A stretch of 55,242 nt of DNA, taken from the IMG/VR virus record IMGVR_UViG_3300037423_000380, one strand, 5' to 3'. Position numbers and translations under genes: made by a program. Source of the DNA: a virus. This document shows, in pieces, positions 2,050 through 46,429 of this stretch. The stretch's first letter is position 1, and each line of letters starts with the position of its first letter. Below the pieces are notes generated by a model that was not told where the DNA came from, did no database searches, and saw nothing but the letters and a program-made list of their open reading frames with translations.

Positions 2050-2105
2050 GAGTGCGGACTCCTGTCGTGGGTGCAGGCGCGTCGTGATGACGCGCTGGAA
2101 CTGCG

Positions 2106-2178
2106 CTGATCCGGCAGGGCTCGAACCTGCGACCGTCGCCTTAACAGGGCGCTGCTCTGCCAACTGAGCTACGGATCA
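2106..2178 (-). tRNA. tRNA-Asn (anticodon GTT), 73 nt, no encoded CCA
   Basis: Hand-folded cloverleaf: acceptor TGATCCG/CGGATCA, D stem GCTC/GAGC, anticodon stem GCGCC/GGCGA (one mismatch), loop CTGTTAA, variable CGGTC, T arm GCAGG-TTCGAGC-CCTGC, discriminator G. U1-A72 and G73 match bacterial tRNA-Asn. Confidence 0.9.
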
Positions 2179-15884: not shown

Positions 15885-15903
15885 GTGAGTCACTGTGACT
15901 CAC
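15885..15903. repeat. GTGAGTC-N5-GACTCAC palindrome, copy 1
   Basis: ggtgagtcac-t-gtgactcacc (10-bp arms), 70 bp upstream of promoter P1. Confidence 0.9.
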
Positions 15904-15929
15904 CAGACACCGAGCTAATGCCTGTCTAG

Positions 15930-15948
15930 GTGAGTCACGATGACTCAC
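15930..15948. repeat. GTGAGTC-N5-GACTCAC palindrome, copy 2
   Basis: gtgagtcacgatgactcac, 25 bp upstream of the P1 -35. Like copy 1 it is preceded by CTAG. Confidence 0.9.
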
Positions 15949-15972
15949 TCGAAACTGAATCGAGATTCGGGG

Positions 15973-16001
15973 TTGACATGTCAAAGTGAGAGGCGTAGCG
16001 T
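15973..16001 (+). promoter_or_regulatory. Promoter P1 (TTGACA-17-TAGCGT)
   Basis: -35 at 15973-15978, -10 at 15996-16001. The spacer contains GTCAAAGTGAGAGG. It lies upstream of the first early gene. Confidence 0.65.
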
Positions 16002-16053
16002 TCTCGGTGTCAGGTCGCCACGGGGCGAGACACCACCACCACAGGAGCACACG

Positions 16054-16665
16054 ATGACCACCACCACCACCACCACGATGACCCGCGAGCAGGCCGAGCA
16101 GGTCACGAGCGAGATCCGCGAGCACGGCAAGGCGCTCGTGACCCACCGGACCAAGTTCGCGGCCGCTGTGAAGCGGGCCAAGGATGGGCAGGCGCACGTC
16201 GCGATGGGCCTGCCCTCATGGCCCGAGTACGTCGCGACCGTCTTCGCGAACATGCCCGGACTCGGCAAGGCGGATGCGGAGTACCTGACCGCGTACATGG
16301 CGGGGGAGGGCATGTCCTCCCGTGCTGTGGCTCGCGTGCTCGGTGTGAGCCAGAGCACGGCCGCTCGCATGATCCGGCAGGCGGAGGAGCAGGGCACGGT
16401 GTCGGCCGATCGGAAGGTCGAGGGCACCGATGGCAAGTCTCAGAGCAAGGGCAAGGGCAAGGGTCGCAAGGCAGGCGCGGGCAAGGGCAAGGCCAAGGCC
16501 AAGGATGGAGAGTCGCGTGACGTCAACGTGAAGACGGCCAAGACGGAGGAGCTCCGCTCGCTCGTCGTCTCGATTCTTGAGGAGTTGTCCGACCGGTGGG
16601 CGGAGGGTGACGAGGCTGCGGAGCAGGCCATGCGCGAGATCGCGGAGAGCGCGGTCGTCGCATGA
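16054..16665 (+). CDS. Helix-turn-helix DNA-binding protein with a Lys/Gly-rich basic linker
   Basis: Start at ATG 16054 (SD CAGGAG). HTH-like SSRAVARVLGVSQSTAARMIRQ; KSQSKGKGKGRKAGAGKGKAKAK tract. The N-terminal extension in the track (from 15940) runs through palindrome copy 2 and P1. Confidence 0.7.
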   Translation: MTTTTTTTMTREQAEQVTSEIREHGKALVTHRTKFAAAVKRAKDGQAHVAMGLPSWPEYVATVFANMPGLGKADAEYLTAYMAGEGMSSRAVARVLGVSQSTAARMIRQAEEQGTVSADRKVEGTDGKSQSKGKGKGRKAGAGKGKAKAKDGESRDVNVKTAKTEELRSLVVSILEELSDRWAEGDEAAEQAMREIAESAVVA

Positions 16666-16742
16666 TGGCGCTGCTCGGCGTGCTCCAGGTCATCGCGGTC
16701 CTCGCGGCCATGATCCTCGCCCTCGCCCTCGCGCTCGCGTGA
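16662..16742 (+). CDS. Possible 26-aa hydrophobic peptide (MMALLGVLQVIAVLAAMILALALALA)
   Basis: ATGA overlap with the upstream stop, a single hydrophobic helix, followed by a terminator. It is too short for the ORF track. Confidence 0.35.
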   Translation: MMALLGVLQVIAVLAAMILALALALA

Positions 16743-16751
16743 GGCGCCTCG

Positions 16752-16780
16752 CCCCCGATCCGGCAACGGGTCGGGGGTTT
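16752..16780 (+). terminator. Intrinsic terminator
   Basis: CCCCCGATCCG-gcaa-CGGGTCGGGGG followed by TTT. Confidence 0.7.
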
Positions 16781-16802
16781 CGGCGTGCCCGCGATCCGCC
16801 AG

Positions 16803-16821
16803 GTGAGTCACCCTGACTCAC
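16803..16821. repeat. GTGAGTC-N5-GACTCAC palindrome, copy 3
   Basis: ggtgagtcaccctgactcacc, downstream of the 16752-16780 terminator. Confidence 0.9.
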
Positions 16822-16873
16822 CCACGGGGTACGCGGTACGCGGTACGGAGTACGGGCAAGAGAGGAGTGTGGC

Positions 16874-17143
16874 ATGGTGGAGACGGTTGGGGATCGGCAC
16901 GGCCAGGAGCAGGCCGGCATAGCGTCCGCGGAGGCGCCACCCGCTAGCTCGGATGCGTACGTGTTCGACGTGCTGACGAGTCCGCACGATGCCGTGAAGG
17001 CCGGCGAACTGTGCCGCGTGTGGTCGAGGGTCGTGGTGAGCCGGCTCGCGTACCCGAGCTATGCGGAGGCGTACGACATGGCCGCGTGCTTGGCTGTGGC
17101 CGTGCATGGTGGGATGCCGACCGATGTCCTGCCGCGCTACTGA
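16874..17143 (+). CDS. Hypothetical protein (89 aa)
   Basis: Track ORF; SD AGAGGAG 7 nt upstream of the ATG. Confidence 0.5.
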   Translation: MVETVGDRHGQEQAGIASAEAPPASSDAYVFDVLTSPHDAVKAGELCRVWSRVVVSRLAYPSYAEAYDMAACLAVAVHGGMPTDVLPRY

Positions 17144-17223
17144 CCTCGCCGGCCATGCCAGCGCTCCCGCCATGACGCCCATGACTCGGGTGACTCGGGA
17201 GGCGTGTGACGCGGGGGAGTGCT

Positions 17224-17252
17224 TTGACTTCAGTGTCAAAGTGTGATAGACT
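17224..17252 (+). promoter_or_regulatory. Promoter P2 (TTGACT-17-TAGACT)
   Basis: -35 at 17224-17229, -10 at 17247-17252. Spacer TCAGTGTCAAAGTGTGA. The leader carries AAGTGAGAGACACCACCACAG, then palindrome copy 4. Confidence 0.7.
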
Positions 17253-17285
17253 TGCGTTAGCAAGTGAGAGACACCACCACAGCGA

Positions 17286-17304
17286 GTGAGTCACCCTGAC
17301 TCAC
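17286..17304. repeat. GTGAGTC-N5-GACTCAC palindrome, copy 4
   Basis: cgagtgagtca-ccc-tgactcactcg (11-bp arms) in the P2 leader, 22 nt before ATG 17326. Confidence 0.9.
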
Positions 17305-17325
17305 TCGAAACGTCAGGAGGTCGCC

Positions 17326-17661
17326 ATGAAGTTCACCATCCGCATCGCCCTCGCCCTCATGGGCACGCTGCTCGGAGTCGCCATGCTCGTGACGCCGGCC
17401 CATGCTCGCGCTGTTCAGCTCGGAGAACCAAAGGTGGAGAGGGTCCACCACGACCCCGTGCTCTACGTCGAGCACGTCCAGCGGCGCTGGTACTACGTCG
17501 AATTAGCGGATGGGTCGTCCTGGATGTTCACGCCCTGCCGGCAGGAGGACTCCCAGAACTGCTGGTGGAACGCGCAGACCAGAGGCAACGGCGAGGGTAC
17601 GTCCTTCGTCAACATCCACGGGCATTACCACTACGCGGTCCGGGGGACTGTCATCCGCTGA
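17326..17661 (+). CDS. Secreted small protein, paralogue A (signal peptide, two Cys, NIHGHxHY motif)
   Basis: MKFTIRIALALMGTLLGVAMLVTPAHA|RAVQ... is a signal-peptide-like N-terminus. It is alignable by eye with 23197..23532. Confidence 0.7.
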   Translation: MKFTIRIALALMGTLLGVAMLVTPAHARAVQLGEPKVERVHHDPVLYVEHVQRRWYYVELADGSSWMFTPCRQEDSQNCWWNAQTRGNGEGTSFVNIHGHYHYAVRGTVIR

Positions 17662-17670
17662 CGCGGAGGC

Positions 17671-17710
17671 GGGTGGCCGGCAGGCACCGAGGTTCGAGCC
17701 CTCGGCATCC
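17671..17710 (+). ncRNA. tRNA-like acceptor/T-arm minihelix, copy a
   Basis: GGGTG-gccggcaggca-CCGAGG TTCGAGC CCTCGG-CATCC, followed by ACG. It starts 10 nt after the stop at 17661. Confidence 0.55.
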
Positions 17711-17714
17711 ACGA

Positions 17715-17733
17715 GTGAGTCACGGAGACTCAC
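17715..17733. repeat. GTGAGTC-N5-GACTCAC palindrome, copy 5
   Basis: gtgagtcacggagactcac, immediately 3' of minihelix a. Confidence 0.9.
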
Positions 17734-17753
17734 CTGATCTGAGGAGATTCACC

Positions 17754-18008
17754 ATGCAGACGCAGACCTCGGTTCTGACCGTGCAGACCACCCGCGTCGG
17801 CGCGATGGACGGCAAGCTCGCCAAGGCTTCCGTCATGTACACGTTCGAGGATGGCTCGATCGACACCACGGAGGCCGTATTCCTCCAGCCGACCGGCGAC
17901 GCCGGCCCGGTGTACCTCGCGCTCGGACGGGAGTGGGTGCTGGTCGAGCAGGCGTCCAGGTACGGCGAGCACCTGTCCCACGAGTGGGTCGAGCGGTTCT
18001 TCGGCTGA
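17754..18008 (+). CDS. Hypothetical protein (84 aa)
   Basis: MQTQTSVLTVQTT...; SD GAGGAG 7 nt upstream. The track ORF from 17286 is an off-frame extension. Confidence 0.6.
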   Translation: MQTQTSVLTVQTTRVGAMDGKLAKASVMYTFEDGSIDTTEAVFLQPTGDAGPVYLALGREWVLVEQASRYGEHLSHEWVERFFG

Positions 18009-18023
18009 GTCACACTGACTCAC
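18005..18023. repeat. GTGAGTC-N5-GACTCAC palindrome, copy 6 (first base C)
   Basis: ctgagtcacactgactcac; the TGA stop of 17754..18008 lies inside the left arm. Confidence 0.85.
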
Positions 18024-18047
18024 CTGTCAAAGAGAGAGGTACCGATC

Positions 18048-18425
18048 ATGGAGATCCCCCAGAGCAACTTCACCACCACGTTCGCGGAGTGCCCGGACTG
18101 CGGAGGCCGGCGCTACCTGACCGGCGAGGCGTTCAACCGCCACGGCGAGCACTCGTTCGTGTTCGACTGCGGCAACTGCGGCGAGGACGTCGCGCTGTGG
18201 TCCATCGACATCCAGGTCGAGTGGCACGAGGACTGGACCACTGCCAGTGACGGTGGACGCTGGGCGCTCGCGATCAGGGCGTACGACGACCTGCCGGACG
18301 AGTACGTGCTGCGGAGGCTGCGTGTGCGTGACCTGAGCCGCATCACCACGTGGCAGGAGCTCGTGGCCGTGTACGGCGAGGAGTCCGTGCGCGCTGCGAT
18401 GGCTGGCGCGGGGTACGAGTCATGA
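18048..18425 (+). CDS. Zinc-ribbon protein (125 aa)
   Basis: CPDCGG ... CGNCGE (CxxC x2); SD GAGAGAGG. Confidence 0.6.
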   Translation: MEIPQSNFTTTFAECPDCGGRRYLTGEAFNRHGEHSFVFDCGNCGEDVALWSIDIQVEWHEDWTTASDGGRWALAIRAYDDLPDEYVLRRLRVRDLSRITTWQELVAVYGEESVRAAMAGAGYES

Positions 18426-18649
18426 CCGCCCAGCCAGTGAGTCAGGCCGACTCACCTGTCGTCCACCTGATCGCGCCGGCCGTGAGCATCGTGCCCAACG
18501 AGCTCGGGACTGGCTACGTCATGACCGGCTCGCCGGCAGACCTGCTGGCCCTCGTGGACACGCTCATGGACGCGGTGGACCGCGGCCTGGACGAGACCTT
18601 CGGCACCGTTGCGGAGGCGTACGAGGCATGGAAGGGCGAGGCGTCGTGA
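18422..18649 (+). CDS. Hypothetical protein (75 aa); the start is uncertain
   Basis: ATGA overlap with the upstream stop. If this start is right, palindrome copy 7 is inside codons 6-11. Confidence 0.45.
   Translation: MTAQPVSQADSPVVHLIAPAVSIVPNELGTGYVMTGSPADLLALVDTLMDAVDRGLDETFGTVAEAYEAWKGEAS
18437..18455. repeat. GTGAGTC-N5-GACTCAC palindrome, copy 7
   Basis: gtgagtcaggccgactcac. Confidence 0.9.
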
Positions 18650-18768
18650 GCGGGTATCTGTCGAGCTTCGTGCTCGTGGTCTGGTGCCTCGCGCCGATCA
18701 TCGTGTTCTTCGCGTTCCTCGTGGCGATGGCCCTAGTTGCCGAGCGCCTCATGGGGAATCGAGCTTGA
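18646..18768 (+). CDS. Possible 40-aa membrane peptide
   Basis: GTGA overlap; VSGYLSSFVLVVWCLAPIIVFFAFLVAMALVAERLMGNRA. Its stop overlaps the -35 of P3. Confidence 0.4.
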   Translation: MSGYLSSFVLVVWCLAPIIVFFAFLVAMALVAERLMGNRA

Positions 18769-18794
18769 CCGAGTGTGCAAGTGAGAGGTAGACT
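18765..18794 (+). promoter_or_regulatory. Promoter P3 (TTGACC-18-TAGACT)
   Basis: -35 at 18765-18770, -10 at 18789-18794. Spacer GAGTGTGCAAGTGAGAGG. The leader carries ACACACCACCACAG, then palindrome copy 8. Confidence 0.65.
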
Positions 18795-18821
18795 TGCACC
18801 AGCAACACACCACCACAGCCG

Positions 18822-18840
18822 GTGAGTCAGTGAGACTCAC
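18822..18840. repeat. GTGAGTC-N5-GACTCAC palindrome, copy 8
   Basis: ggtgagtcagtgagactcacc in the P3 leader, just before SD GAGGAG. Confidence 0.9.
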
Positions 18841-18857
18841 CAGAGGAGTTGATCGCA

Positions 18858-19550
18858 GTGAGCACCACCACCACCCGTGACCTGTCCACCACCACCAAGG
18901 TGATCGAGTTCCTAGAGGAGATCCTGGAGCACGTCGACTACGCCTTCGCCTACGGCGAGCCGGGGTACGACGACCCGGCCGGCGAAACGCCGCTGATCGT
19001 GTTCAGCACCTACTGGTGCCGATGCCGCGACTACGAGGACGAGCGGCACCCGGACTCGCCGCTACACCCGATCGACGTTCACTATCCCGCGGAGTTCGAG
19101 CTCCTGGAGGAGCAGGGCGTCAAGTTGGAGTGGTACGACGAGTGGATCATCGACCACGAGACGAGCAAGGCGTACCGCACCGAGGCCGATGGCGCGTTCT
19201 GGATGCCGTCGTACGTGCTGTGGGAGTGCGACCTGCTCACGCCGGACAACTCGATCGAGACGTGGCTCGACTGGATCACCGAGAACCCGCCGTACTACAA
19301 CGAGGTCAAGGCGATCCCGGAGCGCGCCCTGCCCGTGCGGTTCGACACCGTGGTCGGCTGGGAGCAGTGGCCCGACGACACCACCGACTTCCGCAACGAC
19401 TGGTACGGCAACAACGACGACCCGGCCAAGATCCAGGAGGCGATCCGTCGCGAGCACGGCGAGGAGACGTACGTCGTCTTCATCATCCGGGAGTCGCACA
19501 TGTTCGGCGTGCGGTTCGAGGCGTACTACAAGCTCCCTGAGGAGGACTGA
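18858..19550 (+). CDS. Hypothetical acidic protein (about 230 aa)
   Basis: GTG 18858 is 9 nt after GAGGAG; the track uses TTG 18849. No motif recognised. Confidence 0.6.
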   Translation: MSTTTTRDLSTTTKVIEFLEEILEHVDYAFAYGEPGYDDPAGETPLIVFSTYWCRCRDYEDERHPDSPLHPIDVHYPAEFELLEEQGVKLEWYDEWIIDHETSKAYRTEADGAFWMPSYVLWECDLLTPDNSIETWLDWITENPPYYNEVKAIPERALPVRFDTVVGWEQWPDDTTDFRNDWYGNNDDPAKIQEAIRREHGEETYVVFIIRESHMFGVRFEAYYKLPEED

Positions 19551-19553
19551 GCG

Positions 19554-19778
19554 ATGACGGGCCAAGCGCGAAGCGTCGTGTTCCTCCCGATCGTGCAAGT
19601 CATCGAGCGCGAGGACGGCCGGCTGACCGTGGAGTTCGACTGGTTCGACTCGCTCAATGGCGAGGCGACGGACGAGGGGACGCATATCACGATCTACGCA
19701 GAGGAGGTCGCGGAGGCACTGGACGAGTGGCTATGCACCCAACCCAAGTCGTTCGTCATCAACAGGGGGAAGTCATGA
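19554..19778 (+). CDS. Hypothetical protein (74 aa)
   Basis: Track ORF; SD GAGGAGGA. Confidence 0.6.
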   Translation: MTGQARSVVFLPIVQVIEREDGRLTVEFDWFDSLNGEATDEGTHITIYAEEVAEALDEWLCTQPKSFVINRGKS

Positions 19779-20131
19779 GGATCACTCAGTCGCCGGCCTG
19801 CCGGTGCTGCCCGGAGATCGACGTGGAGTTCGACACCGTGTTTGAGGTCACCGAGGAGGGTGCCCTGATCGAGCGGCCGGACCTCTACGCTCCGATGCTC
19901 CTGGAGAACGAGCTCGACTCGGACAAGTGGCGCCTGTGGTCGCACGGCTACACCGGCCAGTACGGCTACCGCGGCCCGATCATGCACAACTCGGAGATCC
20001 TCGCGGGTGGCATCGCGAAGGACCTTCTGGATGAGCCTGGCGTCTACACCGTGCTCGTGTCGCACTACGAGCCGTACGACGAGCTGGACGGCTACGACGT
20101 GGAGGGCTGGGCCGTCGCACAACTCAAGTGA
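19775..20131 (+). CDS. Hypothetical protein (118 aa)
   Basis: ATGA overlap start (M17 of the track ORF). Confidence 0.6.
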   Translation: MRITQSPACRCCPEIDVEFDTVFEVTEEGALIERPDLYAPMLLENELDSDKWRLWSHGYTGQYGYRGPIMHNSEILAGGIAKDLLDEPGVYTVLVSHYEPYDELDGYDVEGWAVAQLK

Positions 20132-20146
20132 GTCAACCTGACTCAC
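20128..20146. repeat. GTGAGTC-N5-GACTCAC palindrome, copy 9
   Basis: gtgagtcaacctgactcac; the stop TGA of 19775..20131 lies inside the left arm. Confidence 0.9.
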
Positions 20147-20147
20147 C

Positions 20148-20187
20148 GGGCGAGTGGAACACATCGAGGTTCGAGTCCTCGACGCCC
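20148..20187 (+). ncRNA. tRNA-like acceptor/T-arm minihelix, copy b
   Basis: GGGCG-agtggaacaca-TCGAGG TTCGAGT CCTCGA-CGCCC, followed by ACG. Confidence 0.55.
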
Positions 20188-20200
20188 ACGACCTATCACC

Positions 20201-20230
20201 TGGACACAGTGTCAGGGTGTGAGGTACGAT
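20201..20230 (+). promoter_or_regulatory. Promoter P4 (TGGACA-18-TACGAT)
   Basis: Spacer CAGTGTCAGGGTGTGAGG. The leader carries ACACCACCACAGGAGG. Confidence 0.5.
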
Positions 20231-20261
20231 GTACACATCAACACCACCACAGGAGGCCGGC

Positions 20262-20354
20262 ATGGCGAAGTACACCACCCGCAAGGTCAGCGAGGACGCA
20301 AGGCGCGAGACGTTGCGGAGGCGTGAGGTTCGGCGTCAGAAGTACGGCAAGTAG
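20262..20354 (+). CDS. Possible 30-aa basic peptide (MAKYTTRKVSEDARRETLRRREVRRQKYGK)
   Basis: SD CAGGAGG 6 nt upstream; first ORF after P4. Confidence 0.4.
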   Translation: MAKYTTRKVSEDARRETLRRREVRRQKYGK

Positions 20355-20377
20355 TAGAAGTGAGAGGAGGCTCCATC

Positions 20378-20764
20378 ATGAACGACGCACAGGAGGCGTT
20401 GGCCCGTTTGCTCCAGCGGGCCGAGAGCACCGTCGCCGGCGAGGGCATGACCTACGAGGACCCGCTGAGCATCGAGGTCAACGGGCGGTACGTGGACATC
20501 TTGTTCACCACCGGGGGACCGCACATCGAGATTCAGCTCGACTTCGGGTACGAGTGCGGCGGCGCGTACTGGTTCGAGCAGGCGCCCGAGCGAGGCCGGC
20601 TCGACTACATGGATTGGGGGAAGCACGAGGTCGCGTACCTCGGCTCGGAGGAGGCGTGGCTGATCCAGTCCGCGATCTTCCGCGACCCGGACGACCTCGA
20701 AGAAGAGGACGAGCTCGACTCCGGGGACGAATTACCACCCTCCCTCCCCGATGGAGGGGAGTGA
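20378..20764 (+). CDS. Hypothetical acidic protein (128 aa)
   Basis: ATG 20378 is 10 nt after AAGTGAGAGGAGG. Confidence 0.6.
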   Translation: MNDAQEALARLLQRAESTVAGEGMTYEDPLSIEVNGRYVDILFTTGGPHIEIQLDFGYECGGAYWFEQAPERGRLDYMDWGKHEVAYLGSEEAWLIQSAIFRDPDDLEEEDELDSGDELPPSLPDGGE

Positions 20765-20805
20765 TCCGGCCGCGGGATGGAGCACCCGAGGCCCACCAGC
20801 AGTAG

Positions 20806-20824
20806 GTGAGTCGGCCTGACTCAC
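20806..20824. repeat. GTGAGTC-N5-GACTCAC palindrome, copy 10
   Basis: aggtgagtcggcctgactcacct (9-bp arms). Confidence 0.9.
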
Positions 20825-20825
20825 C

Positions 20826-20867
20826 TGCCCGACCGGCAGACACCGAGGTTCGAGTCCTCGGCGGGCA
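20826..20867 (+). ncRNA. tRNA-like acceptor/T-arm minihelix, copy c
   Basis: TGCCCG-accggcagaca-CCGAGG TTCGAGT CCTCGG-CGGGCA; it abuts palindrome copy 10. Confidence 0.55.
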
Positions 20868-20903
20868 CGCAGTTCCACACCACCACCACAGAGGAGCACT
20901 GCA

Positions 20904-21737
20904 ATGGACGAGCTGTTCGACGGCGAGGCGTACGACCTTCGCCGCAAGTTCTACGACGACTGCCTGACCAACCTGCTCGGAGAGTACGAGCTGGTCTACG
21001 TCGACTACCGCGATCAACTCACCGACGAGCAGGTCGCCTGGCTGGCCGCGAAGGATTGGGAGTCCCTCGATGCCTCGATGGATGAGTGGCTGGATGACGT
21101 TCGCTACGAGAGCGCGGACTACCACCGCACCGAGGTCATGGACGAGACCGAGGCCGAGTGGGCCGAGGCTCACGGCCACGAGATCGCGGAGGCTGTTCGC
21201 AGCGCCTTCCGGGACACCGACCTGCACGACGAGCTCCGGTACGCGATCGAGGACCGCGACCGCTCCAACCCGCTCCGCGACCTCGCCGGCAACACTCCGC
21301 GAGTCCTCATGCGGCAGGTGCTCGGCGAGGCCCGCCTGACCTCAGAGGACGACATCGAGGACCTGATCCTCGCTGACCTGGGCGTGCCGGACATCGAGCA
21401 CAACCGCGAGGCGATCCGCAACACGCTCCCGGAGTGCGGGGAGTGGGTGCAGGCGATGATCGTCTGCGCCGTCGACCCGAGCGACCTCTACAACACCATG
21501 ACGGCCAAGGAGGTCGAGGTCATCGACCCCTACCTCTACCTCGGCAACCCGTACATGGGCGACGGGTACTGCGAGGAGCAGCTCCACGCGGCAATCCGCC
21601 TCGACCGCGACTCGCTGACCACCGACAAGAGCGCGTTCGGCTACGGCTGGGAAGAGATTGCCGGCGTCTACGTCAGTGCCTACGAGTGCAACCTCATCCG
21701 CGTCGACTGGAACAAGGCGGAGGGGGCGACGGCATGA
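20904..21737 (+). CDS. Hypothetical protein (277 aa)
   Basis: Track ORF; SD GAGGAG. The leader carries ACACCACCACCACAG. Confidence 0.65.
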   Translation: MDELFDGEAYDLRRKFYDDCLTNLLGEYELVYVDYRDQLTDEQVAWLAAKDWESLDASMDEWLDDVRYESADYHRTEVMDETEAEWAEAHGHEIAEAVRSAFRDTDLHDELRYAIEDRDRSNPLRDLAGNTPRVLMRQVLGEARLTSEDDIEDLILADLGVPDIEHNREAIRNTLPECGEWVQAMIVCAVDPSDLYNTMTAKEVEVIDPYLYLGNPYMGDGYCEEQLHAAIRLDRDSLTTDKSAFGYGWEEIAGVYVSAYECNLIRVDWNKAEGATA

Positions 21738-22102
21738 ACGCGAACGACTGGACCGTGCGCCGGGTCGACCTCGGCTACGGCGGCGAGGAGGGCTCGTGGC
21801 TCTGCCAGTACCAGCCCGCCCTTCGCTGGAACGGGTGGATCGCCTTCCCCTACTTCGACGCCTACACCGTGGTCGACATCCTCGACAACTTCGTCAACCG
21901 TCCGGGCTCTGACCCGTACCACTGGTACGACTACCGCTTCGAGGACGACGGGACGCTCGTCATGGAGGATCGGCAGTTCCGCACCGAGTACCCCGAGGAC
22001 TTCGAGCCCGAGCGCATCGAGCCGGACAAGGACGGCCTCTACTCTCTCGGGGCCTACGGCTGGGCGTGGGACGAGATCAGCGACGAGGAGGGCTCGGCGT
22101 GA
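21734..22102 (+). CDS. Hypothetical protein (122 aa)
   Basis: ATGA overlap start; MNANDWTVRRVDLGYGGEEG... Confidence 0.6.
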   Translation: MNANDWTVRRVDLGYGGEEGSWLCQYQPALRWNGWIAFPYFDAYTVVDILDNFVNRPGSDPYHWYDYRFEDDGTLVMEDRQFRTEYPEDFEPERIEPDKDGLYSLGAYGWAWDEISDEEGSA

Positions 22103-22353
22103 TGACGCGAACCCGACTCGACCTGACTCCGTACCAGACGCCCACCGGCCCGAGCACTGCGGAGTTCTCCGGGGAGCACCGGGGGATGCACGTCGAGCTC
22201 TGGGAGCGCGGCTTCATGTGGGCCTGGGCGATCTTCGCCCTGGACCAGTTCACCCCCGTCGACCAGGGTGCAAGCCTGCTGCGTTCCGACGCCGAGCACA
22301 ACGCCGCCCAGCACATCGACCAGTACCTAGCAAGGAAGGAGCGGGAGTCATGA
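22102..22353 (+). CDS. Hypothetical protein (83 aa)
   Basis: 1-nt TGATG overlap start. Confidence 0.55.
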   Translation: MTRTRLDLTPYQTPTGPSTAEFSGEHRGMHVELWERGFMWAWAIFALDQFTPVDQGASLLRSDAEHNAAQHIDQYLARKERES

Positions 22354-22535
22354 GCACTTGTCTTGGGTGTGGGCACGAGATCGAGTTCGTGCCCGACGTT
22401 GATGAGGACGGCGCCCCGGTTCCCGAGGGCTACGGCATGTGGGTGCGGGTCGACACCGGCTGGGACTGCTGCGAGCCCGGTCCGGGCGACGAAGACCGCT
22501 ACCACGAGCCGACTGCCAGAGAGGAGGAGTCATGA
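22350..22535 (+). CDS. Small Cys-containing protein (61 aa)
   Basis: ATGA overlap; MSTCLGCGHEIEF...WDCCEPG. Confidence 0.55.
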   Translation: MSTCLGCGHEIEFVPDVDEDGAPVPEGYGMWVRVDTGWDCCEPGPGDEDRYHEPTAREEES

Positions 22536-22870
22536 AGCCTGAGAGGAGACTCGTGCTGGACTTCATCCAGCAGAACCCGCTTGCCTGTGAGGACCTCACG
22601 GTCTCCGAGATCGAGACGTTCGCCGAGCACTACGCCGGAGGTCTCGTCGTCCTCGCGGGCTACCCGATGCGGGAGAACTTCTACGTCAAGCTGCACGACT
22701 CGTGGAGCGACACGACGGACATCGTGGTCCACGAGTACCACCTAGAGGACCCGGACCAGCAGACCGAGCGGTACTTCACCGACAGCCGGCGAGCGTTCGA
22801 GTACTTCATGCACGCCATCACCGGCCAGGGCCTCGACGGCACCGGCCCGAGTACCGAGGGGGAGTCGTGA
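22532..22870 (+). CDS. Hypothetical protein (112 aa)
   Basis: ATGA overlap start. Confidence 0.6.
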   Translation: MKPERRLVLDFIQQNPLACEDLTVSEIETFAEHYAGGLVVLAGYPMRENFYVKLHDSWSDTTDIVVHEYHLEDPDQQTERYFTDSRRAFEYFMHAITGQGLDGTGPSTEGES

Positions 22871-23004
22871 TCGAGGAGCTTGAGACCGCGAAGAGGAACG
22901 TCCGCTGGCTCCTCGACCACCCTGACGGCCTCGTGGACATGCACGGCCTTGAGTATTGGGCCGGCCGGGTAGTCACTCTCCGCGCCAAGATCCGAGAGGT
23001 CTGA
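22867..23004 (+). CDS. Hypothetical protein (45 aa)
   Basis: GTGA overlap start; VIEELETAKRNVRWLLDHPDG... Confidence 0.4.
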   Translation: MIEELETAKRNVRWLLDHPDGLVDMHGLEYWAGRVVTLRAKIREV

Positions 23005-23007
23005 GCC

Positions 23008-23193
23008 ATGACGCAGGTCGACCGCGAGCAGGTTACGAGGGCGCTCGACGCCTTCTGGACCGAGATCGCCAAGGAGTTCCCGAAAGTAAAGACAGGCGAC
23101 CTCGACACCGTTAGTGTCCTGCGACTGGAGGACGCGGCGATGTACGCGGTGCAGGGCTGGCTCGACCTCAACACCACCACCGAGGAGGACTGA
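23008..23193 (+). CDS. Hypothetical protein (61 aa)
   Basis: Track ORF; SD GAGAGG. Confidence 0.55.
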   Translation: MTQVDREQVTRALDAFWTEIAKEFPKVKTGDLDTVSVLRLEDAAMYAVQGWLDLNTTTEED

Positions 23194-23196
23194 ACC

Positions 23197-23532
23197 ATGA
23201 ACCGCATCTTCACCAGCATCGCCCTGGCGCTGATCGCCCTTGCCGCGGTAACGGGGCGGGCCGACGCCAAGGCCGTCCAGATCACCGGCCCGACCACCGA
23301 GGTCATGCACCACAACCGCGTGGTGCGCGTCGTCTACCTCGACGGCGTGCACTACCGCATCAGGCTCGCGGACCACTCTCGGTGGCGGCTGACGATGTGT
23401 GCGACCGAGACTGAGCGCAACTGCCTGTGGGCGCCGAACCCCCACTTCGAGGACAACCGCAGGTTCGCCAACATCCACGGACACCGGCACTACTTCGCCA
23501 AGGGCACGTACGTGCCGGTGTTCGTCTCCTAG
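23197..23532 (+). CDS. Secreted small protein, paralogue B
   Basis: MNRIFTSIALALIALAAVTGRADA|KAVQ...; it shares AVQ, HH, LAD.S.W, C..(7-8)..NC.W and NIHGH.HY with 17326..17661. Confidence 0.7.
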   Translation: MNRIFTSIALALIALAAVTGRADAKAVQITGPTTEVMHHNRVVRVVYLDGVHYRIRLADHSRWRLTMCATETERNCLWAPNPHFEDNRRFANIHGHRHYFAKGTYVPVFVS

Positions 23533-23554
23533 ACCCGCACGTGGTGGTGTGGTG

Positions 23555-23573
23555 GTGAGTCAACCCGACTCAC
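23555..23573. repeat. GTGAGTC-N5-GACTCAC palindrome, copy 11
   Basis: ggtgagtcaacccgactcacc. Confidence 0.9.
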
Positions 23574-23577
23574 CGGA

Positions 23578-23617
23578 GGGAGGCCGGCAGGCCCCGAGGT
23601 TCGAGCCCTCGGCTCCC
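23578..23617 (+). ncRNA. tRNA-like acceptor/T-arm minihelix, copy d
   Basis: GGGAG-gccggcaggcc-CCGAGG TTCGAGC CCTCGG-CTCCC. Confidence 0.55.
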
Positions 23618-23653
23618 GCCATGCGTGTCATGACAGCGTGGCGCGCTCTCAGT

Positions 23654-23683
23654 TTGACAAAGTGTCGAAGTGTGATGTAGACT
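23654..23683 (+). promoter_or_regulatory. Promoter P5 (TTGACA-18-TAGACT)
   Basis: Spacer AAGTGTCGAAGTGTGATG. The post -10 sequence TGCGTCAGCAAGT is nearly identical to that of P2 (TGCGTTAGCAAGT). Confidence 0.7.
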
Positions 23684-23717
23684 TGCGTCAGCAAGTTCAC
23701 CCCGAGGAGAGGAAGCC

Positions 23718-23942
23718 ATGAAGCGGACGTACCAGATCCCGTTGACCGGACAGGTCGCCGTGGACGCCGAAGCAGGGACGGTTGACGTGAGCGTCGATCT
23801 CGTGGACCTCCCGCTCGACCTGTCCTACGACTACGAGGTCGACTACAGCAGGGCCGAGGTCGACGCGGACGGCAAGCTCATCCACGAGCTCCAGTCGAAC
23901 TCACTAGAGCACCACTACCTTCAGCACCACATGTCGAAGTGA
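23718..23942 (+). CDS. Hypothetical acidic protein (74 aa)
   Basis: Track ORF; SD GAGGAGAGGAAG. Confidence 0.6.
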   Translation: MKRTYQIPLTGQVAVDAEAGTVDVSVDLVDLPLDLSYDYEVDYSRAEVDADGKLIHELQSNSLEHHYLQHHMSK

Positions 23943-23955
23943 GAGGCGGGAGATC

Positions 23956-24168
23956 ATGACCAAGAAGCAGTTCGAGGCCATCGCGAAGATCCTCAACCGC
24001 TACACCCTCGCGGACCCCGCTCCCGGCACGTTCGATGAGGGCTACGCCGACGCCTCGTTCGGCATCGCCGTCGAGCTCGCCGACTACTTCGAGACGACCA
24101 ACCCCCTGTTCGACCGAGAGCGCTTCCTCTTGGCCTGCGGTATCAAAGTGAGAGGATGGGAACGATGA
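23956..24168 (+). CDS. Hypothetical protein (70 aa)
   Basis: ATG is 9 nt after AAGTGAGAGG. Confidence 0.6.
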   Translation: MTKKQFEAIAKILNRYTLADPAPGTFDEGYADASFGIAVELADYFETTNPLFDRERFLLACGIKVRGWER

Positions 24169-25586
24169 CCACCATCATCGAGGGGATCAGCCTGTTCAGT
24201 GGCCCCGGAGGTTCCATGACCGGCCTCAAGATGGCCGGCGTCAAGAACGGCATCGGAGTGGAGTGGGACGAAGCCGCGGTCACCACCGCTCGGGCCGCGG
24301 GCCACCGGGTCCACCACGGTGACGTGCGGGACCTCGAACCGATGGACTTCTACATCGAGTCGTACGACGGCATCGCCCACCTTCCGGGCACCGACGTGCA
24401 GTTGCTTCTCCAGGCGAGCCCGCCCTGCCAGGGCCTCAGCATGGCCGGCAAGGGCAAGGGCCGCGAGGACCTCGACCTGCTGTTCACCGCGCTCGACGGC
24501 CTGATCGGTGAGGCCGAGGACGGCGTGTCCACGAGCACGCTGCGCGAGATCTTCGATGACCTCAACGCCATGCTCATCGCGGACTGCTCCGACGAGCGGT
24601 CCCCCCTCACCTTCGAGGTCGTCCGCTGGTTCCTCGACCTCAACCCCGACCACGTGATGCTGGAGCAGGTCCCCGCGGCCCTCCCGATCTGGGAGCGGAT
24701 CGCAGACCTCCTGCGAGCCCTCGGCTATGCCGTGTGGGTCGACAACGTGCAAGCCGAGCAGTTCGGCGTCCCGCAGACCCGCAAGCGAGCCATGCTCATC
24801 GCCACCCGGCACGCCACCGAGATGCCTGCCCCGGTGCCCACGCACTCCAAGTTCCACAACCGGACTCCCGAGCGGCTGGATGCCGGCGTGCTGCCGTGGG
24901 TCAGCATGGCCGAGGCGCTCGGCTGGGGCGTGACTGAGATGGTCGGCTTTCCGCGCCGCTACGACGGCCAGGGCGAGGCCATCGAGATCGACGGCGAGCT
25001 CTACCGCGAGCGGGACCTCCGGGAAGCCAGCCTCCCCTCGTTCGTCGTGACCGAGAAGGCTCGGTCGTGGAACCGCTACCTCGACCGCGAGGGCAACGAG
25101 GTCACCCACATGGGCGACGTGCGGAGTTCCCACGGCTGCGTCCGTCCGATCGACGCGCCGGCTCCGACGCTCACCGCGAGCATGGACAACGGCAACTTCC
25201 GCTGGATCGACCGCGAGGCCGTTATCGCGGAGGTCGAGCCCCGCGTCAACAACCAGTCCGGCACGGACTTCGACCTGAGCTGGCCGATGGATCGCCCCGC
25301 TCCCGTGGTCGCCGGCCGCGACATCATCACGATGCCGGGTGCGAACGCCAACCGCTTCAACGGGTCAACCAAGAGCCGCAACGACGGCATCCGCGTCACC
25401 ATCGAGGAGGCAGGCATCCTCCAGTCCTTCCCGGTGGACTACCCGTGGTACGGCACAAAGACCAAGCAGTTCCAGCAGGTCGGCAATGCCGTCCCTCCCG
25501 TGCTTCAGCACGCCCTCACGTCTCATCTTCTGGCCGTGTGTGCAAGTGAGAGGTCGGAGGGGATTTCCGAGGCCGAGGTCGGATGA
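24165..25586 (+). CDS. DNA (cytosine-5)-methyltransferase
   Basis: Motifs: I LFSGPGG, IV SPPCQG, VIII QTRKR, X GNAVPP. ATG 24165 makes an ATGA overlap. Confidence 0.9.
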   Translation: MTTIIEGISLFSGPGGSMTGLKMAGVKNGIGVEWDEAAVTTARAAGHRVHHGDVRDLEPMDFYIESYDGIAHLPGTDVQLLLQASPPCQGLSMAGKGKGREDLDLLFTALDGLIGEAEDGVSTSTLREIFDDLNAMLIADCSDERSPLTFEVVRWFLDLNPDHVMLEQVPAALPIWERIADLLRALGYAVWVDNVQAEQFGVPQTRKRAMLIATRHATEMPAPVPTHSKFHNRTPERLDAGVLPWVSMAEALGWGVTEMVGFPRRYDGQGEAIEIDGELYRERDLREASLPSFVVTEKARSWNRYLDREGNEVTHMGDVRSSHGCVRPIDAPAPTLTASMDNGNFRWIDREAVIAEVEPRVNNQSGTDFDLSWPMDRPAPVVAGRDIITMPGANANRFNGSTKSRNDGIRVTIEEAGILQSFPVDYPWYGTKTKQFQQVGNAVPPVLQHALTSHLLAVCASERSEGISEAEVG

Positions 25587-25708
25587 TGGATTGGGCGCGA
25601 CGGATCATGGAGGCCGACTTCGGGTGCCTCTACTGCGACGACACGTTCCCCACGTACGACGAGGTTGACGAGCACATCAATGCCAACCACGCCGGACTGG
25701 AGCTCTGA
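25583..25708 (+). CDS. 41-aa C2H2-type zinc-finger peptide
   Basis: MMDWARRIMEADFGCLYCDDTFPTYDEVDEHINANHAGLEL (CxxC ... HxxxxH). It overlaps the methyltransferase stop and the next start. Confidence 0.5.
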   Translation: MMDWARRIMEADFGCLYCDDTFPTYDEVDEHINANHAGLEL

Positions 25709-26076
25709 TGACACAGGGGACGGTGAACGGCGGCGATCGAGGCAACACGAGGGATCGCCGCCGTCGTCGGGAGTGGCTGGTCGAGAACTTCCGGGCCGAC
25801 GTGGACGCCTCGGTGGCTCGGGGGACAGACGGCATCCCGTTCGATGTCCAGCTCTACAACGAGCGCCTGACTGGCTGCGGCTACCGCCGTGAGCCGGCGT
25901 GCCGGTGCTACCGCTGCGGGACGCTCCTGACCGTCGACACGGTGTCGCCCGACCGGATCATCCCCGGCTGCAAGGGCGGGACCTACCGCCGCAACAACAT
26001 CAGGCCGGCGTGCCTGCGATGCCAGAGCGTCACCGGCAACGAGATCAAGAGAGCGATCCGCAAGAAGTCCAAGTGA
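25708..26076 (+). CDS. HNH-like (beta-beta-alpha-metal) endonuclease, non-canonical
   Basis: CRCYRCG ... SPDRIIPGCKGGTYRRNNIRPACLRCQ has HNH-family spacing and two CxxC pairs, but D-R stands where D-H is usual. Confidence 0.5.
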   Translation: MTQGTVNGGDRGNTRDRRRRREWLVENFRADVDASVARGTDGIPFDVQLYNERLTGCGYRREPACRCYRCGTLLTVDTVSPDRIIPGCKGGTYRRNNIRPACLRCQSVTGNEIKRAIRKKSK

Positions 26077-26091
26077 GTCCCGATGACTCAC
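26073..26091. repeat. GTGAGTC-N5-GACTCAC palindrome, copy 12
   Basis: agtgagtcccgatgactcact; the stop TGA of 25708..26076 lies inside the left arm. Confidence 0.9.
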
Positions 26092-30396: not shown

Positions 30397-30782
30397 CCGT
30401 GTACCAGTTCAGCCCGCAGCAGGAGGTCCGGCACGAGATCGAGCAGAGCAAGCTCGACCTCCGGGCGGGGGAGGACGGCATCATCGTCACCCTCACCGAT
30501 CTGGAGCCGCAGGCGTTCATCGACGGCCAGATCGTGCTCACGACCCATCAGGCCGGCGAGCTCGCCAAGGCGCTCATCGCGCTGCTGGGCTCCGAGGACG
30601 AGGAGGACTACGGCGTCGGCTACGACATGGGCTACGCCGCGGGCTACCGCGACGGCGAGGAGGAGGGTGCTCGGGTCGGTTACGAGCAGGGTTTCCACGA
30701 CGGTGACGGCGAGGGCTTCGACCGGGGCTACGAACTCGGGAACGAACGCGGATGGGACGCGGCGATGGAGGACTGCGCCTGA
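30393..30782 (+). CDS. Hypothetical protein with a Gly/Tyr/Asp/Glu-rich C-terminus (129 aa)
   Basis: GTG 30393 (GTGA overlap, 7 nt after GAGAGGAG); 30390 is the alternative start. Confidence 0.55.
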   Translation: MTVYQFSPQQEVRHEIEQSKLDLRAGEDGIIVTLTDLEPQAFIDGQIVLTTHQAGELAKALIALLGSEDEEDYGVGYDMGYAAGYRDGEEEGARVGYEQGFHDGDGEGFDRGYELGNERGWDAAMEDCA

Positions 30783-31984
30783 TGGAGCAACTCACCACCA
30801 CAGCCCCTCTCGGGACTCGCCAGGGCAAGGTCATGAACTACGCCTCGATCCTGGAGCCGAACACCGAGGATCAGGCACGGCTCCTATCCACGATGCCGTT
30901 CGTGTTCCCGCACGTGGCCCTCATGCCCGACGCGCATCTCGGCAAGGGCGCGACTGTCGGCTCGGTCATCCCGACCTCCGGTGCCATCATCCCGGCTGCG
31001 GTCGGGGTGGACATCGGCTGCGGCATGATCGCCAAGCGGACCAGCTACACGATGGACGACGTGTCCGGGCTCAACCGACGAGTGCTGCGGGAGGCTATCG
31101 AGGACGCTATTCCGCTCAGCGCCGGCAAGTACAACCAGGAGCGATACGGCAGCGGGACCGACCGTCGCGTCTTCGAGTTGGAGCTCCATGCAGATCAGGC
31201 TGGGTTCAACCCCTATCAGTACGCCGGCAACTGGGATCTCCAGCTCGGCTCTCTCGGCAGCGGCAACCACTTCATCGAGGTCAGCAAGGATCAGGACGAC
31301 TACCTCTGGCTGTTCCTCCATTCGGGCAGCCGGGGCGTCGGCAACAAGATCGCGCAGCACCACATCAAGATGGCGCAGCGGCTCATGGAGCAGTTCTTCA
31401 TCGACCTGCCCGACCGTGACCTCGCCTACCTGCCTGAAGGGACCAACGAGTTCTGGGCGTACATCCGAGAGCTCCGGTGGGCGCAGGACTTCGCTCGCCT
31501 GAACCGGGAGGAGATGATGGAGCGGGTCGAGCACTGCTTCTCGGCATGGGTCGGCAACTCCGAGCTCGGCATCACGCACGAGGTCAACTGTCACCACAAC
31601 TACACCGAACAGGAGCGCCACTTCGGCAGGGATGTGTGGCTCAGCCGCAAGGGTGCGATCTCGGCCAAGGCGGGGGAGTGGGGCCTGATCCCCGGCTCGA
31701 TGGGCACTCGCTCGTACGTCGTCCAAGGCAAGGGCAACGCTCTCTCGCTCAACTCGGCTCCGCATGGTGCCGGCCGGCAGTACAGCCGCTCGGCTGCTCG
31801 CAAGGCGTTCGGCGTCGATGACCTGCGGGCCGCGATGGGTGACATCGAGTACCGAGACACCGATGCGTTCGTGGACGAGATCCCCGCGGCCTACAAGGAC
31901 ATCGACGTGGTGATGAACGACGCCGCTGACCTCGTGGAGATCCGCTACGAGCTGAGCCAGATCGTCAACGTGAAGGGGGACTGA
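30782..31984 (+). CDS. rtcB: RtcB RNA 3'-phosphate/5'-OH ligase
   Basis: PDAHLGKGATVGSVIPT, GVDIGCGM, GSGNHFIE, HSGSRGVGN, NCHHNY, PGSMG and SAPHGAGR are the conserved RtcB metal and GMP-His motifs. The start may instead be ATG 30833 (MNYAS...). Confidence 0.93.
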   Translation: MEQLTTTAPLGTRQGKVMNYASILEPNTEDQARLLSTMPFVFPHVALMPDAHLGKGATVGSVIPTSGAIIPAAVGVDIGCGMIAKRTSYTMDDVSGLNRRVLREAIEDAIPLSAGKYNQERYGSGTDRRVFELELHADQAGFNPYQYAGNWDLQLGSLGSGNHFIEVSKDQDDYLWLFLHSGSRGVGNKIAQHHIKMAQRLMEQFFIDLPDRDLAYLPEGTNEFWAYIRELRWAQDFARLNREEMMERVEHCFSAWVGNSELGITHEVNCHHNYTEQERHFGRDVWLSRKGAISAKAGEWGLIPGSMGTRSYVVQGKGNALSLNSAPHGAGRQYSRSAARKAFGVDDLRAAMGDIEYRDTDAFVDEIPAAYKDIDVVMNDAADLVEIRYELSQIVNVKGD

Positions 31985-33614: not shown

Positions 33615-33660
33615 GGTTACACAATACCCATCGAGACGAGCATTGCGTAGCCATGTATGG

Positions 33661-33810
33661 CTAGCGGACGATCGCCTCGGTCTTCGAGACGACCTCGATC
33701 CGCTTGGCGTCACCCTTGGCGAGCTGGATGGCGGTCGCCTTCACGTCAGGGTGCAGAGCGTTGATGCTGGTGCGCTTGACGACGACCCGAGATGACTTCG
33801 ACTTAGGCAT
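33661..33810 (-). CDS. Possible 49-aa protein upstream of the integrase
   Basis: MPKSKSSRVVVKRTSINALHPDVKATAIQLAKGDAKRIEVVSKTEAIVR. Codon usage looks coding but there is no clear SD. Confidence 0.35.
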   Translation of the reverse strand: MPKSKSSRVVVKRTSINALHPDVKATAIQLAKGDAKRIEVVSKTEAIVR

Positions 33811-46316: not shown

Positions 46317-46429
46317 GCCTATCACTCCCTTCCGTGTCTCATCTCACATTTCAACCTGGGTGTTGAGAGTACAACTGTGACGTGGGATGGTGGGGGTGTC
46401 AAGTTGTTTGGTGAGAGGGGAGGTAAATA

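Follow-up and report, generated by a model that had tools for sequence, protein, structure and literature searches.

Invariant palindromes along the early operon of an R4-like actinophage are probable operators of a candidate early winged-helix protein

In phage phiC31, conserved inverted repeats (CIRs) are reportedly bound by the c repressor, and in phage lambda the small DNA-binding protein Cro shares its operators with CI, with three sites per promoter. The published R4/ELB20 stoperator is the asymmetric motif TGTGCAAGTGTNGC(A) (PMC10276819); cluster A-type stoperator repressors act as monomers on asymmetric sites (PMC9283540), and the protein at a stoperator is believed to act as a barrier to RNA polymerase during elongation (PMC9283540; PMC10276819). 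Mycobacteriophage BPs uses a tetrameric immunity repressor, gp33, at five regions, each composed of a 12-bp palindrome and a variable half-site (PMC4557955). Here, we analyze a 55,242-nt stretch of viral DNA (IMG/VR record IMGVR_UViG_3300037423_000380; the window), in which a 19-bp palindrome, GTGAGTC-N5-GACTCAC, recurs along a single early operon that also carries R4-type stoperator-like sites. On balance we favor the view, without great certainty, that these palindromes are DNA operators of a phage-encoded dimer, most likely the winged helix-turn-helix (wHTH) protein encoded by the first early gene (16054..16665).

The palindrome has 11 exact matches in the window, whereas shuffled sequences gave a mean of 0.01 and never reached 11. 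When up to two mismatches were allowed, the sole gain was a 12th copy at 18005 (CTGAGTC..., one mismatch). The 12 copies span 15885-26091 (Table 1); outside 15.9-26.1 kb there is none at up to two mismatches, and the rest of the window holds just four lone half-sites (6512, 52125, 36063, and 49406). The first base of the 5-nt center is A in 10 of the 12 copies and the last base is T in 8. Eleven copies are noncoding or overlap a stop codon, and promoter leaders hold two of the copies. Among the 10 copies located 3' of the first gene, 9 fall in such sequence, which makes up only 18% of the total (binomial p ~1.5e-6). Copies 1 and 2 begin 123 and 78 nt 5' of the inferred start site of the promoter-like site P1, copies 4 and 8 begin at approximately +27 and +21 of P2 and P3, and four copies sit 17 to 24 nt 5' of start codons. 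The probable coding sequence 18422..18649 overlaps the preceding gene by ATGA, and copy 7 is translated within it as VSQADSP. These searches agree with a sequence-only reading of the same DNA, which had reported twelve copies confined to this region (with the C-first copy at 18005 among them), had considered such a pattern not to be expected even once by chance, and had seen no copy elsewhere. The positions it gave also check out for the two copies 5' of P1, the two in the P2 and P3 leaders, the TGA stop codons within the left arms at 18005, 20128, and 26073, and the copy lying inside the 5' end of a tentative coding sequence.

Two simple explanations could be set aside. An intrinsic (factor-independent) terminator fits poorly, since the hairpin is not followed by a T/U run: T is rare at positions +1 to +12 of the sites in the 65-site logo described below, and a scan of the plus strand of the early region yielded no terminator-like site. 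The earlier view that simple intrinsic termination is a poor explanation is thereby borne out. Restriction-site avoidance was rejected as well, because GAGTC/GACTC is not depleted in the window (152 copies, compared with a median of 132 for 5-mers of equal composition).

We then compared ten related metagenomic contigs, reached via homologues of the 16054..16665 protein. All ten carry the palindrome or a symmetric variant of it, exclusively in the early operon. The palindrome is present in 9 copies in L035, 10 in L036, 12 each in L037 and L038, and 11 in L165, every one of them in the early operon; the wHTH proteins of these contigs are 97%, 69%, 66%, 66%, and 61% identical, respectively. Even the 1-kb contigs L167 and L168 have two copies each, one on either side of the wHTH gene. 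In L036, ~9 kb of upstream late genes are without a copy, and a single copy lies in the noncoding stretch before the wHTH gene. Nongenic DNA can barely be aligned between these relatives, yet the 14 arm bases are kept, and this conservation implies that selection on them is strong. Across 65 unique sites from seven genomes, the logo reads C-R-R-[GTGAGTC-A-NNN-T-GACTCAC]-Y-N-G, with invariant arms, a nearly free center, and symmetry extending out to +/-3.

Three lineages have their own symmetric variant throughout their copies, such that the arms are uniform within a genome while the centers differ. The variant in L040 is GCGAGTC-N5-GACTCGC (a CGAGTC core in eight copies, five of them full matches), that in L166 is CCGAGTC-N5-GACTCGG, and both copies in L169 read GTGAGTCA-TG-TGACTCAC, with an N4 spacing that is one base shorter. 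Each of these lineages is paired with a divergent wHTH protein (P0013, P0011, and P0014, respectively). Gene conversion among the repeats would have homogenized the centers too, but the centers vary. If only the hairpin structure mattered, the stem could vary in sequence and each copy would be free to drift on its own. Nor would lineage-specific variants be expected with a conserved host factor. Invariant arms, free centers, and lineage-wise switches therefore leave a symmetric dimer that co-evolves with the phage, and together they point to a sequence-specific, phage-encoded DNA-binding protein as the reader of the palindrome. The 65-site logo and the switches affecting both arms strengthen the original suggestion that sequence and spacing, rather than mere pairing, are conserved and that the site is recognized by a dimeric protein.

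Scans of larger collections placed these sites in context. A DNA-pattern search of IMG/VR gave 34 hits, each single, which we took as chance, and no clusters; protein-based scans of IMG/VR found no relatives. In Metagenome_contigs, both a protein-profile scan and a composite pattern (palindrome plus the tRNA-like element described below) came back empty, and the clade is seemingly absent there. The pattern scan of genome_contigs produced at least 120 matches, nearly all of them single sites per stretch in assorted taxa; among the matches listed there was no Streptomyces genome, no dense array, no wHTH homologue, and no prophage cluster. A related sequence, GTGAGTCA-N3-TGACTCAC, occurs on many contigs of a few unrelated genomes among the same listed matches, namely on L050, L059, L091, L094, L103, and L113 (one Coriobacteriaceae metagenome-assembled genome) and on several Giesbergeria, Bradyrhizobium, and Xanthobacteraceae contigs. 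These contigs have no wHTH homologue, which suggests independent host repeat families that share the sequence by coincidence.

We considered whether a host transcription factor reads the sites, for example HspR, which would couple early expression to the chaperone or stress status of the host. The consensus of the HspR operator, HAIR, is CTTGAGT-N7-ACTCAAG (PMC6102357), and the palindrome contains TGAGT-N7-ACTCA, matching 10 of 14 HAIR positions at equal spacing. There is also precedent for phages carrying host-factor sites, such as the CtrA sites of alphaproteobacterial phages (PMC9437464). The outer HAIR bases, however, differ in all copies, and the lineage variants (GCGAGT, CCGAGT, and the N4 spacing, which is N6 in HAIR terms) move further from HAIR: the match falls to 8 of 14 positions in L040, and in L169 the spacing is one base shorter. 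Moreover, R4-like phages isolated on Streptomyces hosts are without the sites, and the few actinobacterial singletons inspected among the listed matches of the genome scan gave no indication of neighboring chaperone genes. We therefore regard a host-factor reading as very unlikely.

The protein that best fits a phage-encoded reader is the wHTH protein used to find the relatives. At least one site lies 5' of its gene in all nine loci that have upstream sequence, and one or two sites lie just 3' of its stop codon in all ten relatives, even on 1-kb contigs. An extra palindrome occurs within the part of the gene that encodes the disordered linker in L036 (10475), L037 (802), and L165 (710). Two lineages translate this linker palindrome as VSQ(G/D)DSP and the third, in a different frame, as GESVRLT; because it is read in two frames, the constraint acts on nucleic acid rather than protein. 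The association extends beyond the clade. L041, an unrelated phage contig of 57% GC with a 32%-identical homologue, has CTGAGTCATCGTGACTCAG in the leader of the homologue's operon, and L042, with a distant homologue in an unrelated phage background, has TTGAGTCATCGTGACTCAC nearby; we put the chance occurrence of a site of this kind on a contig at ~1e-5. Conversely, three R4-like phages (Joe, Caliburn, and phiHau3) encode the immunity repressor homologue and carry the tRNA-like elements but are without the wHTH homologue, the palindrome, and any half-site array. On the minus strand of Joe (L039, ~45176-45200), GTGAGTC-gcagg-GTGACC stands directly upstream of a tRNA-like element, and this half-site with a degenerate second arm looks like a decayed palindrome copy. 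Of the three helix-turn-helix proteins that the sequence-only reading had named as possible binders, the 16054..16665 protein emerges as the best candidate.

Sequence and fold searches assigned the wHTH protein to no characterized family and returned generic winged-helix domains only. All of its Pfam matches are below curated cut-offs (MarR_2, 20.4 bits versus 27), and a profile search of the PDB gave only weak helix-turn-helix matches (best E value, 0.04). In an AlphaFold2 model (mean predicted local distance difference test score, 77.5), residues 72-125 form a winged helix of three helices and a beta hairpin. A helix of 34 residues precedes it at the N terminus, and a disordered Lys/Gly linker leads on to a helical hairpin at the C terminus that could drive oligomerization. 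With Foldseek, ~50 residues align to the DNA-binding domains of DeoR, MntR, and Lrp (probability 0.8-0.9, E ~0.5). The family defined by the N-terminal helix plus winged helix is large, with 3741 cluster representatives at E<=1e-3 and 1388 at E<=1e-10 (50%-identity clusters); some JGI records call its members 'transposase'. A 25-codon open reading frame (16664-16741, plus strand) that encodes an all-hydrophobic peptide (MALLGVLQVIAVLAAMILALALALA) overlaps the wHTH stop codon. A transmembrane anchor on the wHTH protein was considered and rejected, as the hydrophobic stretch belongs to this separate 25-amino-acid open reading frame in another frame.

Several observations weigh against the wHTH protein as the binder, or against a role for the sites as operators. 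All related loci were found via wHTH homology, so the co-occurrence of wHTH and palindrome is partly built in, and no independent clusters emerged when DNA patterns alone were scanned. The recognition helix (SQSTAxR) is near-identical across lineages whose sites differ in their outer bases, and it offers no clear specificity code; residues tracking the GT, GC, and CC site variants were sought in the wHTH alignment, and none was convincing. Such a palindrome is missing from L043/L044 and from two cultured phages, vB_MoxS-R1 and PFR1, whose homologues are at most 36% identical. Copy-to-promoter distances range from about -135 to +83, and because positions vary in this way the direction of regulation is unreadable from geometry. 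Finally, some features would suit a function in RNA: four of the five tRNA-like elements of the operon (Table 1) stand beside palindromes, four sites precede start codons closely, and the predicted palindrome hairpins are moderately stable (-10 to -16.5 kcal/mol).

An RNA-level role is indeed the strongest rival to the operator reading. In this scenario the polycistronic early transcript would be cleaved at the tRNA-like elements by RNase P or RNase Z of the host, and the palindrome, folded into a hairpin of 7-11 bp, would cap and stabilize the mRNA ends or modulate translation or pausing, the DNA copies themselves being functionless. Cutting at tRNA-like elements by these host enzymes would parallel tRNA punctuation in mitochondria. 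Because the elements lie on either side of palindromes, the hairpin would end up 3'-terminal in some cleavage products and 5'-terminal in others. Their acceptor-like stems co-vary (GGGCG/CGCCC, GCCCG/CGGGC, and GGGAG/CTCCC in the window; GGGTG/CACCC in L037), and although an Rfam search returned no credible family, one copy weakly matches mascRNA, an RNA processed by RNase P/Z. The hairpin energies and the sites just upstream of start codons also fit, and the symmetric lineage variants preserve base pairing as well as symmetry. Four of the five elements are only a few nucleotides from a palindrome; the fifth is ~50 nt off. The RtcB RNA ligase gene (30752..31984) shares the operon with these elements.

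The pattern of conservation is nevertheless hard to explain by RNA structure. A structural hairpin has no need of 14 invariant stem bases around a free loop at 65 sites in diverged genomes, and RNA-binding proteins usually recognize loops and bulges, not stem sequence. Copies within one genome show no compensatory differences; change is concerted by lineage. Seven of the 12 copies have no nearby tRNA-like element, and R4-like phages retain these elements without the palindrome. In 73 R4-like Streptomyces phages, unannotated intergenic DNA matches the 45-bp element at ~93% identity. The copies 5' of P1 are kept in every lineage, though no transcription is predicted there. In the window these copies are probably untranscribed, because no promoter-like site was found upstream of copies 1 and 2 and the probable genome end is adjacent. 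We thus think it unlikely that the palindrome works solely in RNA. In phiHau3, the slot between stop codon and tRNA-like element that holds the palindrome in this clade is filled by a stoperator, and because of this shared slot, the analogy weakly suggests that the palindrome, too, is a protein roadblock. A dual signal, in which the palindrome would be a wHTH operator in DNA and an mRNA-end hairpin beside tRNA-like elements cut by RNase P/Z, seems to us a little more doubtful still; were it true, phage-encoded mRNA punctuation or end capping would be tied to a transcriptional regulator.

A different protein of the same phage might read the palindromes: they could be operators, or symmetric stoperators, of the immunity repressor that silences the early operon in lysogens. 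Being multicopy, intergenic, and in some cases within leaders, the palindromes resemble the stoperators of L5 and R4 and the CIRs of phiC31, and the phage is temperate, with a serine integrase (32199..33713) and a repressor homologue. The 153-amino-acid protein encoded by 45864..46325 (minus strand) matches PHROG 3929 "transcriptional repressor" (E = 2.7e-64) and shares 55-65% identity with the "immunity repressor" found in R4-like Streptomyces phages (R4/Joe family), a family whose known sites are asymmetric (PMC10276819). A nearly identical asymmetric 13-mer, TGTSMAAGTGNGA, is present in 25 copies at up to two mismatches across the whole window, compared with 2.65 expected (Table 1). With a slightly different pattern, 23 of 25 stoperator-like copies are co-oriented with transcription genome-wide, a rule that also holds for the stoperator motif in Joe. 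These copies occupy the spacers of P1, P2, P3, and P4 and sit just 5' of many start codons. Because the genome has both an R4-type repressor homologue and stoperator-like sites, lysogenic silencing appears to be already accounted for. The nearest palindrome is >19 kb from the repressor gene, repressors of the cluster A type are monomers on asymmetric rather than symmetric sites (PMC9283540), and Joe, Caliburn, and phiHau3 have the repressor without the palindrome. Reading the palindromes as sites of the immunity repressor is thus highly improbable, and the proposal that they are symmetric analogues of stoperators silencing the operon in lysogens is not supported, given a separate R4-type repressor homologue and ~25 asymmetric sites, the lack of any palindrome near the repressor gene, and R4-like phages that have this repressor and no palindromes. 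Because P1 carries a stoperator, the wHTH protein should be off in lysogens and active only in lytic growth.

Another reading is that the palindromes serve chiefly as recombination sites or module boundaries and promote the exchange of cassettes among related phages. Homology blocks shared with L035, the closest relative of the window, start or stop at palindromes (17717, 18009, 18436, and 20818), two cassettes are swapped in order with the junction exactly at site 7, and equivalent slots hold different genes, such as ArdA in L035, L036, L038, and L040. However, recombination will incidentally concentrate at any conserved 19-bp repeat. No dedicated recombinase accompanies the sites, the copies 5' of P1 and within the wHTH gene flank no cassettes, and homologous exchange needs neither strict symmetry nor lineage-wise co-variation. 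We read the mosaic breakpoints at palindromes as a consequence of conserved repeats rather than their purpose and give the shuffling explanation very little weight. We find it hardest to credit that the sites, like lambda O iterons or parS, are bound by a replication initiator or by a protein of partition or condensation. Three relatives do have a copy in the wHTH linker, as the lambda ori lies within gene O; distant wHTH homologues are found just 5' of an AAA_25 NTPase; and the helix-turn-helix is weakly like those of P1 ParB and RacA (E ~0.1). Against this, the sites are dispersed over 10 kb at gene boundaries and form no array beside an AT-rich stretch, the replication genes (primase, 39675..40322) are in the other arm, and no ParA- or ParB-type gene is present among the ~30 window proteins scanned.

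The window is an uncultured temperate actinophage laid out like R4-like (Streptomyces-type) phages. GC content is 65%, and GC by codon position delineates an operon of small plus-strand genes (16054 to 32141) with minus-strand genes on both flanks. Besides the integrase, repressor, RtcB, and primase genes, we identified a C5 methyltransferase (24156..25586), a ribonucleotide reductase, a sigma factor, and tail genes. Among 50,697 phage records (INPHARED, searched with megablast and tblastn) there was no close relative, and the sole match of the window to known phages was the 45-bp tRNA-like element in R4-like Streptomyces phages. The layout of the genome is that of phage Joe in reverse complement; because of this layout and the repressor homology, we equate the palindrome-bearing operon with the leftward "right-arm" early genes of R4-like phages. 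A noncoding stretch of ~800 bp (15129-15940), 5' of the wHTH gene, is full of short GC-rich repeats (GCAGGCAGGCACGCGG, CTGCCTGCC, and CTCACGTG) and recurs in relatives (L036, 9650-9800; L037, 1-240; L038, 1-560; L040, 1-130); it is probably a cos or genome-end region, because three related contigs stop there. A further inverted repeat, ACTTGCGTYAGCAAGT, is found at 17248-17265 and 23679-23696 in the window and at 1198-1215 in L035; at P2 and P4 this repeat overlaps both the -10 hexamer and the start site, and the resulting transcripts would begin with a hairpin. In the late-gene region, a gene for tRNA-Asn (GTT; 2105-2178, minus strand) overlaps an open reading frame candidate (1705..2163) that is supported by third-codon-position GC.

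Table 1. Positions of palindrome copies, promoter-like sites, the candidate binder gene, tRNA-like elements, and stoperator-like motifs in the window
Feature	Position(s)	Strand	Remarks
Palindrome copy 1	15885..15903		GTGAGTCACTGTGACTCAC; upstream of P1
Palindrome copy 2	15930..15948		24 bp 5' of P1 -35 hexamer
Palindrome copy 3	16803..16821		Between wHTH gene and next gene
Palindrome copy 4	17286..17304		P2 leader, ~+27; start codon 21 nt downstream
Palindrome copy 5	17715..17733		Few nt 3' of tRNA-like element; start codon 21 nt downstream
Palindrome copy 6	18005..18023		CTGAGTC..., one mismatch; TGA in left arm; stoperator-like motif follows at 18025
Palindrome copy 7	18437..18455		Codons 6-12 of probable coding sequence 18422..18649
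Palindrome copy 8	18822..18840		P3 leader, ~+21; start codon 17 nt downstream
Palindrome copy 9	20128..20146		Overlaps TGA stop; tRNA-like element directly 3', then promoter-like site 20201-20230
Palindrome copy 10	20806..20824		tRNA-like element directly 3'; contains mosaic breakpoint versus L035
Palindrome copy 11	23555..23573		Followed by tRNA-like element, then promoter P4
Palindrome copy 12	26073..26091		Overlaps TGA stop of HNH gene 25708..26076
Promoter-like site P1	15973..16001	+	TTGACA, 17 nt, TAGCGT; strong sigma-70-like; stoperator-like 13-mer 15979-15991 in spacer
Promoter-like site P2	17224..17252	+	TTGACT, 17 nt, TAGACT
Promoter-like site P3	18765..18794	+	TTGACC, 18 nt, TAGACT
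Promoter P4	23654-23683		Downstream of copy 11 and tRNA-like element
First early gene, 203-amino-acid winged-helix protein	16054..16665	+	Candidate palindrome binder
Five tRNA-like elements	~17671-17712, 20148-20190, 20826-20870, 23576-23620, 26141-26192	+	T-arm GAGGTTCGAGYCCTC in acceptor-like stem
Stoperator-like TGTSMAAGTGNGA copies	15979, 17234, 18025, 18774, 23663, 23932, 24141, 25539, 26066, 27585, 28980, 30369, 45757	+
Stoperator-like TGTSMAAGTGNGA copies	5120, 9465, 14821, 15040, 23659, 37907, 39669, 43109, 44383, 46714, 47627, 50894	-

These observations led us to propose how the operator set might work. After infection, the wHTH protein would be made first, from P1, and its dimer would then occupy the sites that bracket its own gene, those in the P2 and P3 leaders, and those at cistron boundaries, thereby modulating transcription of the early operon in lytic growth. 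The most likely effect would be a symmetric roadblock to RNA polymerase that lowers early transcription, with the operon feeding back negatively on itself and its genes being shut off at a set time. Such control would be separate from lysogenic silencing by the R4-type repressor and the asymmetric stoperators, and its role may be likened to that of lambda Cro with a stoperator-like geometry. If the proposal is correct, a large uncharacterized family of early phage helix-turn-helix proteins would gain its first functional handle in the form of a defined operator, and an R4-like temperate phage would run two multi-site DNA-binding systems on one operon, with asymmetric stoperators for lysogeny and symmetric operators for lytic timing. 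To our knowledge, early-gene shut-off in R4-like and cluster A-like actinophages is not understood, and it would become testable. The binder and its 19-bp site could also be put to use in Streptomyces synthetic biology as an orthogonal repressor-operator pair. The palindromes mark mosaic junctions and are useful in this respect for annotating early-region cassettes.

The set would behave as a phage regulon with multiple operators, and its closest analogues are the L5/R4 stoperators, the phiC31 CIRs, and the BPs gp33 sites. Set beside described systems, the palindromes share with the stoperators of mycobacteriophage L5 (cluster A) and R4-like phages the presence of many copies of a short motif at intergenic and leader positions in transcribed phage operons. 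Those stoperators, however, are asymmetric 13- to 14-mers bound by a monomeric immunity repressor and are distributed genome-wide in the orientation of transcription, whereas the palindromes are perfect inverted repeats with a symmetric logo, occupy the first 10 kb of one operon alongside R4-type stoperator-like sites, and have an early lytic protein as their likely, candidate binder. The CIRs reported for the temperate Streptomyces phage phiC31 are similar in being a highly conserved inverted repeat with many intergenic early-region copies, including copies at the regulator's gene. They differ in that their binder is the immunity repressor, while here immunity is assigned to another protein and motif; no copies lie near the repressor gene at 45864..46325, and copies bracket the early wHTH gene instead.

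Lambda Cro and the candidate wHTH protein are both encoded by the first gene of an early operon, with palindromic operators that include their own promoter region. Unlike the operators of Cro, the 12 sites described here are dispersed, distinct from those of the repressor, and mostly 3' of promoters or between cistrons, and the wHTH protein combines a winged helix with extra helical domains. The HAIR operator of HspR has the same TGAGT-N7-ACTCA core and spacing as the palindrome, but HspR is a host MerR-type protein at chaperone promoters, whereas the palindromes are in a phage operon, have other outer bases, and occur in variants that diverge from HAIR. Repeated short motifs at the boundaries of small early genes and at mosaic junctions also bring to mind the promoter-early stem-loops of T4-type phages and the start-associated sequences of cluster K mycobacteriophages, which are promoter/terminator modules or asymmetric motifs by the ribosome-binding site; integron attC sites are a further parallel for sequences at cassette boundaries. 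The T4-type and cluster K motifs, in contrast to the palindromes, are not known to include a strict palindrome tied to a dedicated helix-turn-helix gene. Like BPs gp33, the system described here would pair a phage regulator with a short palindrome at several regulatory regions, although gp33 has five regions with variable half-sites and the palindrome has 12 invariant copies (PMC4557955). From these comparisons, the palindromes are probably a second, symmetric operator set for a candidate early lytic protein of an uncharacterized family, standing beside the stoperator system.

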